DNA of 64,000 nt from Leucoraja ocellata (Eukaryota), in contig JAWMAR010000054.1 in the NCBI GenBank assembly GCA_036785375.1, positions 9,796,001-9,860,000 of the forward strand. The letters are read 5' to 3'. Each line of letters opens with the position of its first letter. Position 1 is the first letter of the stretch. This document shows, piece by piece, positions 1 to 41,770 of the stretch. Under the pieces are notes generated by a model, which saw nothing but the letters and a program-made list of their open reading frames with translations, did not search any database and was not told the DNA's origin. Made by a program: the position numbers and the translations under genes.

Positions 1-950
1 AAGTCTTAATGCCATTTCACCTACAAAATGACTCTTTGTTTAAGACACTGGTTAACATTTTTGATATTTGAAATATATAGCAGACACTCCAAACCATTTT
101 AAAACACCAAATTGTATACACAAGTGTATTTCAGAATCAAATATCCATTTAAAAATCAATAGACAGCTATAAATTTGATGTTAATGCACAGTCTTACTAT
201 TATAAAATGTTCTCCTACCTGGAGTACAAAATGACTGCAAAAGATTTTCTGCTCAATACAGAAAGATTTCTTATAAAAGCCTCATCAGCGCATTTGAACT
301 TCGTTATCCACTGAGCAACGAACGGTCCTTCAGAAGGGGCACAAAGTCTCTGATGTGAGTGTGCATATCGCTGTCACAGCCGCGGCACAAAGAGCCAGCC
401 CTACCTCTTTCAGTGTCTTTGCAGCCAATCAATAAAAACAAGCATTGCAAACCAACCACTGAAAAAGCAACCAAAGTCCAAAGGGCTTTCTTACATTTTC
501 CAGTCACCACTTAACTCCTACACCCTCCGTGCCCCGCTGTACACAACTGGTGAACTTTACACTAAGCTAACATATCTCTTTGCTTCTCATCCAAATTGCA
601 CTGACCGAGTGTGTGTAAATCTAGAAGTAAACATCTAAAACAACACTGTTTAGGAAAGAAGTGCTTTGGTGTGCGATCCAAGGTCGGAATCAAAGTGATA
701 GAGATGCAACATAAATCCCTTCCTCACCCGCCCATACACGTATGTATATACCCTCATACACTGGTTCTTTGCAATATTCAAATATTATTTTCATTTGTCC
801 AAATTCTGAGCAAACAAATTTAAAAATAGATCCACTTAAGCATTCTTTTCAAATGCTCTAATTGAATTGTTTTGCTTCTATCTGAGCTCGTAACACATGA
901 TCTATTCCTCCAGAACAACTCATGTTGACTACAACTAGAACTAATGGTAA

Positions 951-1008
951 CATAGAAACATAGAAACATAGAAAATAGGTGCAGGAGTAGGCCATTCGGC
1001 CCTTCGAG
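951..1008 (-). mobile_element. CR1 (HER1-like) subfamily A 3'-terminal fragment
   Basis: (CATAGAAA)n tail plus TAGGTGCAGGAGTAGGCCATTCGGCCCTTCGAG, as at other A 3' ends. Confidence 0.85.
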
Positions 1009-1179
1009 ATAAAGGTTTGTGTTTAAAATTAATTTTCCATATTATATTGATCCGAAAGGAGGAAGCTTTAGCTGTTTCCAATTAGTTCCCTAATGTGACC
1101 TGTACCTCTTAATGTACACAGCCAATAAATTAATTCCAGTTGCACAAAAACACCACAGTTAAGTTGAGATTCTTCTTTT

Positions 1180-1687
1180 AGAAACATAGAAACATAGAAA
1201 TTAGGTGCAGGAGTAGGCCATTCGGCCCTTCGAGCCTGCACCGTCATTCAATATGATCATGGCTGATCATCCAACTCAGTATCCCGTACATGCCTTCTCT
1301 CCATACCCCCTGATCCCCTTAGCCACAAGGGCCACATCTAACTCCCTCTTAAATATAGCCAATGAACTGGCCTCAACTACCCTCTGTGGCAGAGAGTTCC
1401 AGAGATTCACCACTCTCTGTGTGAAAAAAGTTCTTCTCATCTCGGTTTTAAAGGATTTCCCCCTTATCCTTAAGCTGTGACCCCTTGTCCTGGACTTCCC
1501 CAACTTAGGGAGCAATCTTCCTGCATCTAGCCTGTCCAACCCCTTAAGGATTTTGTAAGTTTCTATAAGATCCCCTTCTCAATCTCCTAAATTCTAGAGA
1601 GTATAAACCAAGTCTATCCAGTCTTTCTTCATAAGACAGTCCTGACATCCCAGGAATCAGTCTGGTGAACCTTCTCTGCACTCCCTC
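1180..1687 (-). mobile_element. CR1 LINE subfamily A, 5'-truncated
   Basis: ORF2 C-terminus (TRGHSLRIRG...FFTQRVVNLWNSLP) and tail. Confidence 0.92.
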
Positions 1688-1819
1688 CAGAACAACTCAT
1701 GTTGACTACAACTAGAACTAATGGTAAGATGGCCAAAAGCTTCCAAAGGTATAGCACAATACAATTTAGAGAAAGAACTGGTCCAGGCGAGACCTTTAAA
1801 CAAAGCAACAGAGAAAGCA

Positions 1820-2550
1820 ACACTGCTCACATTCTCATTCCACTCTTGTCATTTGGGAGAAGGTTTAGGAGTCTGAAAACTGCAAAGTCCAGGTTCAAGA
1901 GCAGCATCTTCCCAAAAACCATCAGGCTATTGAACATTATAAGATTGAAACATATAAGATTGTTAAGGGCTTGGACACGCTAGAGGCAGGAAACATGTTC
2001 CCGATGTTGGGGGAGTCCAGAACCAGGAGCCACAGTTTAAGAATAAGGGGTAAGCATTTAGAACGGAGACGAGGAAACACTTTTTTTCTCACAGAGAGTG
2101 GTGAGTCTGTGGAATTCTCTGCCTCAGAGGGCGGTGGAGGCAGATTCTCTGGATGCTTTCAAGAGAGAGCTAGATAGGGCTCTTAAAAATAGCGGAGTCA
2201 GGGGATATTGGGAGAAGGCAGGAACGGGGTACTGATTGGGGATGATCAGCCATGATCACATTGAATGGCGGTGCTGGCTCGAAGGGCCAAATGGCCTACT
2301 CCTGCACATATTGTCTATTGTCTATTACATACTGCGACAAAACTTTAAACTACAAACTGCCTGGGTTGTTGTACTCGGGACTTTGGGGTTTGTTTTGTTT
2401 TTGTGCTATTTTGGGTTTTGTTGGATTTCTATTTTTTCTGTGTATGTTTATTATGTTACCTAGTGAGTACTGCACTTACAAATCTAATGAGCTGCTGCAA
2501 GTAGCAATTTCATTGTTCCATTTTGGGACATATGATAACAAAACACCCTT
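1820..2550 (+). mobile_element. Degenerate Rex1/Babar-like LINE 3' end, interrupted by CR1-B
   Basis: GRRFRSLKT..SRFKSSIFPKTIRLLN motif; tail-like ATTTCATTGTTCC...GA. Confidence 0.55.
1946..2325 (+). mobile_element. CR1 LINE subfamily B, 5'-truncated
   Basis: LDTLEAGNMFPMLGESRTR; (ATTGTCT)n tail. Confidence 0.9.
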
Positions 2551-3723
2551 GGCTCTTGAGAAAGTGGGACCATATCATAATGAAAAGGAAATTGGTAACG
2601 GAAAGAAAGAAAAATAGGCAAGAATATCATGTTCAAACTGAAGGCATAAATTTACAAGCACCATTCTTTCCCTGCTGAAGGTTAATGAATGATCTTATGG
2701 CATGCATTTAAAATTAAATTCTCTCAAAAATAAATACCAACAGATTGCTGACATCACAAAGCTCAGGTCTTTAGCGATGTCCACCACTACTTGTAAACTT
2801 GGTTCAGGAGAAAGTCAGACTTTATAAGTGAAACGATTTTAAATGAAAAACAAAGACCTCAACAAAATCCAAATTTCAACCTTGTGTGATTTGTAAACAT
2901 CTGAGTTCAGTTTGCATTGGGAGTATTATGACACAATTCCAATTGTTAAAGACATCCCAAAATAACTTCTTGAAAACATAATTACTGCATTGCATAACTG
3001 TTTTCTAACTTGCACTTGGAAATGCTGATTAAACATAGGAAGGAGTGGAGTTTCCATGCTTTTTGCCGGATGCAACTTACTTAAAACTGTTAAATAAATG
3101 ATGCAATGCATAATAACGCTACATTACTGCAGCTTACCCAAGCCATCAGAAAGGAGATCAGAGCCAAAAAAAAATTTAGACGACTTAATTCCAAAAAAAA
3201 CCATTTAATCCAGCACTTCATCTTGGATACAACAGCAGACTGGGGATGTTGAAATCTTGCACAAATAGCAAAGTATGAGATACTCAGCAGGCCAGCCAGC
3301 AACTGTGGAGGGGAAATGGACCTGATGACATTCCAAATCTGAAAACTATAAACTTCTACCCTATAAGATGGAAATGAAGACCAGAACTTGCAGCAAACCT
3401 ACTGTATTTTGTTGTCTACTTATATAGAATTATACACTGTGAAAACAGAATGGCAGCACATGTAAATGTTCTTGTATTTCACATTGTAACATAGTTAATT
3501 TGATTTTCTTGTGTTGGTATCAAGATATCAAGAGCCACTTACATACCAATAACCCAGTAGCTGATGTCAAGTCCTGACATCACATGCGCCTTGGTCTAAA
3601 CATAGACTAAAGGGTTGAGTTCCAGAGATGATGATGGAAAGAGTGCCCTTGACATTAAGGCTACGTTTGACCAAGTTGGTATCAAGGAGACTTGGCAAAA
3701 ACAAAGACATTGGGCATCAAGAA

Positions 3724-14918: not shown

Positions 14919-15363
14919 GGTTTGTCGCTTGCCAGGCTTTGTCCCACTGCACCTCTTCTGCACCCCACTACAATCAATCTGAAGAAGGGTCCCAATCTGA
15001 AGCATCACAAATCCATTATCTATCTCCACAGGTGCTGCCTGACCCACTGAGTTCTTACAGCAGTCTGTGCCTAGTTCAAGATTCCAATATCTGCAGTTCA
15101 TTGTGCCTCCTCAATATTCTGTGCTGTTCTAGTTCTGGCCTCTTACATATTTGGAATCTAGCTATTTAATACAGATAATTAAAGATGATGAAAAATACTG
15201 AATCAATATATGTGCTCATTAATAACTTTTCAGTTCAACGTTATCTAATTATATTTTTGGATGTTACAGTTGTTTTGAAACTCAGTCCAAATTGTATACT
15301 ACACAATTCTTGATTTGCTAGCAATAATTGAAACTGATTACTAAATGAACGATGAAATCATGA

Positions 15364-16525
15364 AACAATAGACAATAGGTGCAGGAGTAGGCCATTCGAC
15401 CCTTCGAGCCAGCACCGCCATTCAATGTGATCATGGCTGATCATCCCCAATCATGTTTTCAAGAAGGAACTGCAGATGCTGGAAGATCGAAGGTACACAA
15501 AATTGCTGGGGAAACTCAGCGGGTGCAGCAGCATCTATGGAGCGAAGGAAATAGGTGACGTTTCGGGCCGAAACCCCTTAAAGGAAATAGGTGACGTTTC
15601 GGACCGAAACCCTTTGGGTTTCGGCCCAAAACGTCGCCTATTTCCTTCGCTCCATAGATGCTGCTGCACCCGCTGATTTTCTCCAGCAATTTTGTGTACC
15701 ATCCCCAATCAGTACCCCGTTCCTGCCTTCTCCCCTATATAGAATAGAATAGAATAGTTTCTTTATTGTCATTGTAACATGAACCATGTACAACGAAATT
15801 TAAAAATGTCAGCCAGTCAGTGCACCATTCAAACATTTCTAAAAGCTAACGATACATACAAGATAAAATATTAAAAGATAAACAACTAAAATAAATATCA
15901 TGAAAATAGCACGCATAAACACCCAACCCTCCATCCTTCTGTCGATTTCACAGTGTACCACAGTCCCTTAGTATGTATCGCCCCTATGTTCCTTGGCGGC
16001 TACATTTAGTGCCTTTACAGCAGTGGGGTAAAAACTGTTTTTATGTCTGTTTGTCCTTGTCCCCTGACTCCGCTATCTTTAAGAGCCCCATCTAGCTCTC
16101 TCTTGAAAGCATCCAGAGAACCTGCCTCCACCGCCCTCTGAGGCAGAGAATTCCACAGACTCTCCACTCTCTGTGAGAAAAAGTGTTTCCTTGTCTCCAT
16201 TCTAAAAGGCTTACTCCTTATTCTTAAACTGTGGCCCCTGGTTCTGGACTCCCCCAACATCGGGAACATGTTTCCTGCCTCTAGCGTGTCCAAGCCCTTA
16301 ACAATCTTATATGTTTCAATGAGAATCCCTCTCATCCTTCTAAACTCCAGAGTGTACAAGCCCAGCTGCTCAATTCTCTCAGCATATGACAATCACGCCA
16401 TCCCGGGAATTAACCTTGTAAACCTACGCTGCACTCCGTCAATAGCAAGAATGTCCTTCCTCAAATTAGGGGACCAAAACTGCACACAATACTCCAGGTG
16501 TGGTCTCACTAGGGCTCTGTACAAA
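15364..16525 (-). mobile_element. CR1 subfamily B with PLE palindrome (15454-15699) and inserted Rex1-like 3' end (about 15740-16060)
   Basis: ORF2 motifs; CATCCCCAATCA duplication around the palindrome; (ATAGA)n tail of the second insert. Confidence 0.88.
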
Positions 16526-21325: not shown

Positions 21326-22240
21326 AAGGGAAGGTATACAATGTTTACGCAGAGAGCATTCAAAGTCAAGCCGGATCTATGAGGCATGAATGTATCAAAC
21401 TCCCTCAACTCTCCTTTCTCAAGTCTCACTCAGATGGATTTCTGGTTCCACTCCTAAGTTCTGTTGCAAACGTTGTGGTGCCATCAGCATACACTAAGGA
21501 AATTGTTGATCAATCATCCAATTTTAATTTTAACACATACAATTTGGGATAAAAACAAAAAAATGTACTCGGCAGGTCAGGAAGCATCAGTGGGAAGAGA
21601 AACAAAGTTAATGCTTGAAGTCAAAACCCTTTCATTGGTATTTTCCATTTTTTTAAATTTAAGATATCTAGCATTGGCAGTTTCCATTCTCACCCCCCCC
21701 CCCCCCCCCCCCCCCGGCACAGATTTTCCAAATTGTGGATTTTGATTTCCATCTGACCAAATATTCCACGGATTCGATCGAGATATTTATGGCAAGAACA
21801 CATACATGTCATTTAAGACCTGTTAAATCTTGAGATATTAATTTTAATTTTAGATTCTAGCAGAGTCGACCCAATAGTATATTTCTCTAATCTTTCTGGT
21901 CTATCTTAGGGAAGACGAGAAAAAGGCAGAAGGCAAGGAAAGAAAAGTAGAATCTCAACTTAACTGTGGTTTTGTGCAACTGGAATTAATTTATTGGCTG
22001 TGTACATTAAGAGGTACAGGTCACATTAGGGAACTAATTGGAAACAGCTAAAGCTTCCTCCTTTCGGATCAATATAATATGGAAAATTAATTTTAAACAC
22101 AAACTTTTATCAAGAAGTAAACGGCTACAATTATTAATTCAAATTAACTCTCTTCACAATATGGAGAGGATTGGGTTGCCCTGCTAAATTAAACTATTAA
22201 TTCAACATGAAGGTTTCAATGTCATACAGACTTGTGTACT

Positions 22241-40993: not shown

Positions 40994-41490
40994 CATTTCT
41001 CACAGAGAGTGGCGAGTCTGTGGAACTCTCTGCCTCGGAGGGCGGTGGAGGCAGGTTCTCTGGATGCTTTCAAGAGAGAGCTAGATAGGGCTCTTAAAAA
41101 TAGCGGAGTCAGGGGATGTGGGGAGAAGGTTGGAACGGGGTACTGATTGGGGATGGTACGCAAAATTGCTGGAGAAACTCAGCGGGTGCAGCAGCATCTA
41201 CGGAGCGAAGGAAATAGGCGACGTTTCGGGCCGAAACCCTTTCCTTATTTCATTTTCACCTATTTCCTTTAAGGGGTTTCGGCCCGAAACGTCGCCTATT
41301 TCCTTCGCTCCATAGATGCTGCTGCACCCGCTGAGTTTCTCCAGCAATTTTGTGTACCTTCAATCTTCCAGCATCTGCAGTTCCTTCTTGAAAACATGAT
41401 TGGGGATGATCAGCCATGATCACATTGAATGGCGGTGCTGGCTCGAAGGGCCGAATGGCCTACTCCTGCACCTATTGTCTATTGTCTATT
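40994..41490 (+). mobile_element. CR1-B 3' end carrying a PLE palindrome (41156-41396)
   Basis: TGATTGGGGATG duplication; same junctions as 15454-15699. Confidence 0.88.
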
Positions 41491-41770
41491 GATGCCCACC
41501 ACATTGTGCCCACGTGGATCTGCACTACCTTTAGCAGTGGATATCAAAAATATATTCAACAACAAGTTTATCAGCCACAACATTCTACCCATGTCTCCAC
41601 ATGGTAATAACACTTGCCGGTCGGTGACCCTTTACTCTACCCAGAAGACCAAAGGAAAACTGTGGGATCACTAACTGAATCTATCCAAGATTTGCCAACA
41701 CATCAGGTTTAATCCAGCCACCTTCCTGCTTTCCGTGGCACCAGCTGTCATTTGCTTTGATTTGGCAAAT

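Follow-up and report, generated by a model that had tools for sequence, protein, structure and literature searches.

Non-element DNA within or beside LINE insertions has been described in several systems. In human tumours, L1 'templated insertions' carry less than 250 bp of genomic DNA, typically taken from within 15 bp, which is copied during integration and for which a strand-annealing-like switch has been proposed (10.1101/2024.08.27.596794). In induced cells, complex L1 insertions contain same-orientation pieces from two RNAs joined by template switching, and the available text of that report also describes three insertions that contain genomic DNA originating close by, as well as cleaved flaps together with cDNA at another junction (PMC11702581). 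Tripartite LINE chimeras, in which three pieces within one pair of direct repeats are explained by a double template jump, are reported from Magnaporthe and mammals (PMC2104539), and LINE-RNA chimeras are likewise known (PMC13174262). MMBIR insertions are short, often inverted copies of nearby DNA with imperfect microhomology, which occur as germline variants and may involve several switches (PMC8421209). Finally, LINEs of the L2/CR1 type may carry extra nucleotides at their 5' junctions that are copied from flanking DNA (PMC4245944).

Here, we analyzed an inherited insertion in Leucoraja ocellata that resembles each of these systems in part. It lies in contig JAWMAR010000054.1 (C54), near the left end of the window, that is, the whole stretch of 64,000 nt analyzed here (positions 1 to 64000). 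As far as the available text of the above reports goes, it departs from the somatic L1 templated insertions in that the donor is 21 kb away, the copied piece is inverted, the element is CR1-like and synthesis appears to restart at a second 3' tail; from the cell-line L1 events in being an inherited CR1 allele, a donor distribution of 5-90 kb being a feature of the skate side; and from the tripartite chimeras, all pieces of which are transcript copies, in having a middle piece of unique local sequence that is antisense to the host gene. MMBIR needs neither retrotransposon RNA nor a target duplication and its templates were searched within ~100 bp, whereas the extra nucleotides of L2/CR1-type LINEs number a few, come from directly adjacent DNA and sit at the 5' junction, unlike the 170 bp from 21 kb found here near the 3' end. 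The general kind of event is therefore known from L1 templated insertions, tripartite chimeras and MMBIR, and what is new is the distance scale, the germline setting and the CR1 family.

The initial annotation had read the locus as a three-part insertion, and its anatomy was confirmed. The 44-mer at 907-950 (+) is repeated at 1684-1727 (+) with 44/44 identical positions, and the match stops at both ends. Between these two copies of the target-site duplication lie a first CR1 3' end at 951-1008 (minus strand; 58 bp, comprising a 24-nt octamer tail and 34 nt), a captured piece at 1009-1179 (minus) and a second, 5'-truncated CR1 3' end at 1179-1687 (minus; 509 bp, comprising a 22-nt tail and 487 nt of young-subfamily body). 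The last two nucleotides of the left duplication copy (AA) are also compatible with the tail repeat, and the first four of the right copy (1684-1687) are common to the 5' end of the element. The three parts together are enclosed by a single duplication, and the 5' microhomology is of the usual kind. As had been claimed, the middle piece is an inverted copy of unique DNA at 21943-22111 (+): positions 1008-1179 (172 nt) are the reverse complement of this 169-nt donor except for substitutions at 1014 and 1174 and a 3-nt indel at 1149-1151, giving three differences in 172 nt. The donor is ancestral intronic DNA, neither edge of which adjoins a CR1 in the present assembly, and its distance of 20.9 kb from the insertion lies far outside the ~15 bp range typical of tumour L1. 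Exact microhomology amounts to 1 nt on each side of the capture (1008 and 1179), which is the level expected by chance, and with mismatches allowed 5/7 nt pair with the donor at the left junction, as compared with the at least 2 bp used as a criterion for MMBIR.

We take the family to be CR1 from its octamer tail and from ORF2 C-terminal motifs. The 8-nt tail unit is found at both CR1 3' ends of the insertion, and an octamer microsatellite at the 3' end is a described feature of the CR1 clade (PMC4316615). A 3.1-kb young, 5'-truncated copy of the same family (L104:7285-9999, minus) contains an uninterrupted ORF2 stretch of 904 aa with RVT_1 (1e-32) and Exo_endo_phos_2 (3e-11) matches; therefore, the family has been active recently. 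The insertion body belongs to the young subfamily at 14/14 diagnostic sites and differs by 1.5% from the subfamily majority state, which from sequence divergence would roughly agree in age with the 3/172 differences between capture and donor. The second tail, at 22 nt, has the commonest length among young copies (12/97). The two tail pieces (953-1008 and 1179-1234) differ at one of 56 sites, the first post-tail position, where the first piece has A, the base of the older subfamily. This A/T difference hints at two templates; the hint is weak, given that an older-subfamily A next to the tail was also found in 5/74 young-body copies (C54:8.4-10.06 Mb), scattered over sub-types at about ten times the mean per-site rate. 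These five copies may themselves reflect early switches between subfamily RNAs.

The structure of the insertion is real. The captured 170-mer was found at two of two candidate places in the 3.44-Gb assembly, both within the window, so it is not a dispersed repeat, and the left flank of the insertion occurs at one place. With regard to relatives, six of the 14 listed contig runs with a share of at least 0.3 and two of four raw RNA runs were compared with the window. In outgroups C (~4.0% diverged) and D (~4.5%), one contig each joins 906 to 1684 with a single 44-mer, as the initial annotation had anticipated for an empty site, and this confirms the target duplication of a target-primed insertion. 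The donor is present ungapped amid other flanking sequence in organisms C, D and E, with contigs continuing beyond the donor edge; thus, the non-element piece has a single pre-existing genomic donor, as in templated insertions (assembly-wide search; C, D and E), and the 3-nt indel represents a deletion in the donor copy of the window. On the filled side, both runs of organism A yielded a contig at 982-1173 with zero differences that crosses the 1008/1009 junction, and the organism B run (1.6% diverged) yielded a contig at 984-1198 that crosses 1008/1009 and 1179 and has the ancestral base at 1014, the junction overhangs of these A and B contigs being 19-27 letters, under the 31-letter bridging rule. 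The insertion is thus older than the split between A and B and younger than the split from C, because A and B are filled and C and D empty. Only empty or full alleles were seen at the insertion site, in a small number of samples. The donor itself diverges in the outgroups by 3.5-6.4% (six differences per 172 nt in C, 11 in D and nine in E) as compared with 4.0-6.2% for neighbouring sequence, and would thus appear to evolve like neutral intron DNA with no indicated function: the earlier description of the copied DNA as local and intronic stands, and nothing points to its being regulatory.

The region is also represented by a second haplotype contig (C347), which has a scaffold gap over the focal insertion site. 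Compared with C54:8.5-10.02 Mb, this contig is an inverted second version with a steady identity of 96-97% and many private insertions, and it may be either a duplicate or an unusually deep haplotype that was retained.

The target duplication had been singled out as far longer than the others of CR1 copies in the window. It is rare (~1%) but not unique. A strict scan of 1.66 Mb found no duplication of at least 6 bp in 88/105 young copies (96 in mismatched controls), and CR1 insertions private to one haplotype show overlaps of 2-10 bp in 5/6 cases. A wider scan together with the survey described below gave long duplications at about 3-5 of 384 CR1 3' ends, and target duplications longer than 20 bp are a recognised LINE class (PMC4245944). 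Candidates include direct repeats of 218 bp around C54:9890123-9890885 and of 96 bp around C54:8668337-8669125, both of which are low-copy DNA enclosing one truncated CR1 copy. In addition, an LSM14-like reading frame lies between 206-bp direct repeats at C54:9577224-9578785 and is possibly a retrocopy with a long duplication.

The window lies entirely within intron 1 (141 kb) of a minus-strand GAB-family adaptor gene, presumably GAB1, which was placed by a heuristic exon scan and a motif search; exon 1 is 13 kb to the right and exon 2, which encodes the PH domain, is 65 kb to the left of the window. A composition skew of -8 to -11% agrees with a minus-strand host transcript, and the exon scan confirmed no plus-strand exon within the window. 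In the two RNA runs, depth in unique intron bins was close to zero, and the bulk run was unstranded and so uninformative on strand. First-strand synthesis proceeds rightward along the + strand, so that the donor + strand served as template for the capture, and because the host gene is on the minus strand, this template is antisense to the host pre-mRNA. The middle piece is thus antisense to the only gene found over the donor, which differs from the sense-transcript copies of tripartite RNA chimeras. DNA is therefore the likelier and simpler template. The initial annotation had allowed either looped DNA or a + strand transcript; DNA is kept, but the transcript is unsupported given the minus-strand orientation of the host gene, and the remaining candidates are DNA and an antisense RNA that escaped detection. 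The host pre-mRNA itself, suggested as template by strand clusters among other local copies, is rejected for the same orientation. All four checked events with donors inside the host gene have a + strand template, which along the 1.66 Mb is not a significant clustering (two-sided p ~0.13, hand calculation).

To place the focal event in context, we surveyed local copies in the window and the 1.6 Mb beside it. Among 86 two-copy segments, 21 were dissected and 18 were checked genome-wide. The 18 comprised 11 low-copy pairs, six dispersed repeats and one undecided pair. Ten of the 11 low-copy pairs, that is, the focal event and nine others, are bounded by CR1, and one has no CR1 boundary. The donors of the ten CR1-bounded events lie 5, 6, 15, 19, 21, 25, 28, 38, 57 and 88 kb away (median 23 kb), with none beyond 88 kb within the 1.66 Mb. 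If donors were evenly spread, the chance of all ten lying within 90 kb would be ~2e-10, a figure to be read with the facts that candidates were hand-picked and donors outside the stretch invisible. CR1-adjacent pairs more than 130 kb apart proved to be dispersed repeats in 4/4 checked cases, and the unique-looking segment 11466-11802 of the window proved to be a dispersed 330-bp repeat with at least 40 copies at 91-97% identity.

Several of the survey copies look like products of repair rather than of reverse transcription. In 7/10 checked events CR1 is still next to the copied flank at the donor. Rare variants common to the copy and the donor CR1 were too few to point either way. The events at C54:9997948 and 8716924 are missing from C347, whose CR1 copy is whole, and both show a change from donor type to own type near the re-entry point; this fits a nearby CR1 having been invaded from one side, either while the element inserted or afterwards, a deletion in C347 being the alternative. 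These data point to homologous invasion or repair as the common route among the survey events. On the other hand, a long enclosing duplication was found in 0/8 survey events with simple homologous anatomy but encloses the focal event, which ties the capture to the insertion. A different anatomy was found at C54:9710413 (region C54:9710360-9711772), where a CR1 copy lying 88 kb leftward has received 590 bp of the window (2341-2930, +) in inverted orientation; no homology is involved, and exit from and re-entry into this CR1 copy are separated by 4 nt. At C54:9710360, the 590-bp piece is preceded by 55 bp copied from nearby DNA, and C347 contains a further partial copy of this junction ~9 kb away. 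The 55-bp repeat was dropped as a target duplication, the enclosed unique DNA having no other place in C54. At C54:8917217, donor minus-strand sequence is followed by a tail, which is the anatomy of a priming junction, and the donor CR1 is still there. C54:8618793 was dropped as a case of focal-type anatomy, its 48-bp CR1 end being a nested piece.

Our preferred reading, for which belief and doubt are about evenly balanced, is a single insertion event that passed from CR1 RNA to local chromosomal DNA and then to a second CR1 RNA end; this and the following gradings are rough judgements rather than computed posteriors. The nicked + strand end at 950 would prime on the CR1 RNA tail, and 58 nt would be copied before the cDNA end slips off and pairs weakly (5/7 nt) with the donor + strand, where either the reverse transcriptase or a polymerase of the host would copy ~170 nt. 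Re-priming of the free end on a CR1 RNA tail would add another 509 nt, after which the cDNA would pair through its terminal 4 nt with the opposite side of a 44-nt staggered break, and fill-in of this break would produce the duplication. Such a course suggests that the two sites were physically near each other. Capture during insertion is favoured because there is no CR1 at the donor and a long duplication encloses the event, unlike in the homologous class. Judging from the sequence of the insertion, the start of the second piece at the tail end and the difference between the tails at a subfamily-marking site would also speak for one event, as may the L1 precedents by analogy; C54:9710413 is a second non-homologous excursion with the same geometry. 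Against one event, re-priming at a fresh tail inside one duplication was found nowhere else in the 1.66 Mb, same-strand CR1 3' ends less than 900 bp apart are not enriched there (33 seen versus 38 expected), most of the ten survey events keep a donor-adjacent CR1 and two are missing from C347. Thus, the single priming event with two switches put forward in the initial annotation is plausible and accounts for one duplication around all parts, but it is not proven. The same switches may have used germline RNA antisense to the host gene (+ strand) over the donor as the middle template, and RNA-to-RNA double jumps are known (PMC2104539); the uniform + strand templates within the host gene would be in keeping with this. 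However, the minus-strand host transcript with its concordant skew and the absence of a confirmed + strand exon in the window argue against it, the near-zero RNA depth being uninformative, and we consider such a template very unlikely.

It is possible, if somewhat doubtful, that the capture, the second tail and the body form one donor-primed unit. A CR1 at 21942/21943 on another allele may have been copied together with 170 bp of its 3' flank, which would need one switch and amount to local 3' transduction, or the flap and cDNA of a simultaneous insertion may have been joined to the 58-nt stub; in L1 cell models, it has been inferred that flaps can be cleaved and inserted at other places together with their cDNA (PMC11702581). 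Donor minus strand followed by tail is exactly a priming junction, C54:8917217 has the same anatomy with the donor CR1 retained, 8/18 young copies are missing from C347, and the 48-bp CR1 end of one survey copy is matched at its donor in C347 but not in C54. Yet no source element lies just upstream of the donor, the DNA left of 21943 being unique in the present assembly, so this account requires either that an allele was lost or that two events took place no more than 21 kb apart; moreover, the near-identity of capture and donor when copied suggests the same haplotype, and CR1 insertions have no target-site signature to speak of against which the donor junction could be tested. The claimed difference from 3' transduction therefore holds for distant masters but not for a CR1 formerly at the donor edge on another allele. 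Less probable still, and in our view unlikely, is a simple CR1 insertion with a 44-bp duplication that later broke near its 3' end and was repaired with 170 bp of nearby DNA by an MMBIR or end-joining type of process, 56 bp of its own end being duplicated or taken from a lost donor, so that reverse transcription would be unneeded for the capture. The absence of C54:9997948 and 8716924 from a second haplotype with whole CR1, the exit and re-entry at C54:9710413, the single difference between the two tail pieces and the multi-template germline insertions that are common in people (PMC8421209) would all suit such repair, but it needs a change at precisely the subfamily-marking site, re-entry no more than a few bases into the tail and, by chance, a host copy with one of the rare long duplications. 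An assembly error, a dispersed repeat or 3' transduction from a distant master is scarcely credible and already largely refuted: although no listed contig piece from the relatives' runs spans the whole insertion and the second haplotype is gapped here, the 170-mer has two places genome-wide, junction contigs come from three runs under two organism labels, and one of these contigs carries a distinct allele at 1014, and both outgroups have empty sites. The misassembly that the initial annotation had named as a risk thus did not materialize.

The focal event is a neutral-looking intronic scar. It provides a clean inherited LINE capture from tens of kb with both an empty site and a donor in outgroups, the templates in human tumours being a few bases away according to the available text (10.1101/2024.08.27.596794). 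In the literature covered, which mostly excludes subscription papers, we came across no cartilaginous fish for which CR1-bounded captures with donors 5-90 kb away are reported. Taken together, the survey suggests that local copying is common in the skate genome and has a set reach. We would go further only very tentatively, with more doubt than belief: CR1 ends in the germline may routinely reach 5-90 kb and copy 100-800 bp of single-copy DNA, leaving about six scars per Mb with a strand rule from replication or transcription, and such scars might serve as a fossil record of contacts in germline chromatin and as a steady source of short-range shuffling within genes, distinct from transduction. 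If true genome-wide, this would offer a countable, strand-resolved record of what broken or inserting germline DNA ends touch, and a means to separate reverse-transcriptase switching from repair.

Some additional repeats were observed in the surveyed region. Window positions 15357-15735 and 41120-41493 form an inverted pair with 92% identity, in which a CR1 piece encloses a 250-bp palindromic repeat; the best full-length match of the former is its local partner, and the pair may be another local copy. Inverted repeats of ~60 bp that lie 4.7-4.8 kb apart at C54:8629434-8634307 and 9566931-9571696 are likely DNA transposon ends. Finally, a 91-bp repeat at L041:9792-9882 (C54:10049792) occurs on many contigs in at least 40 copies that are 100% identical, and is a very young small element.
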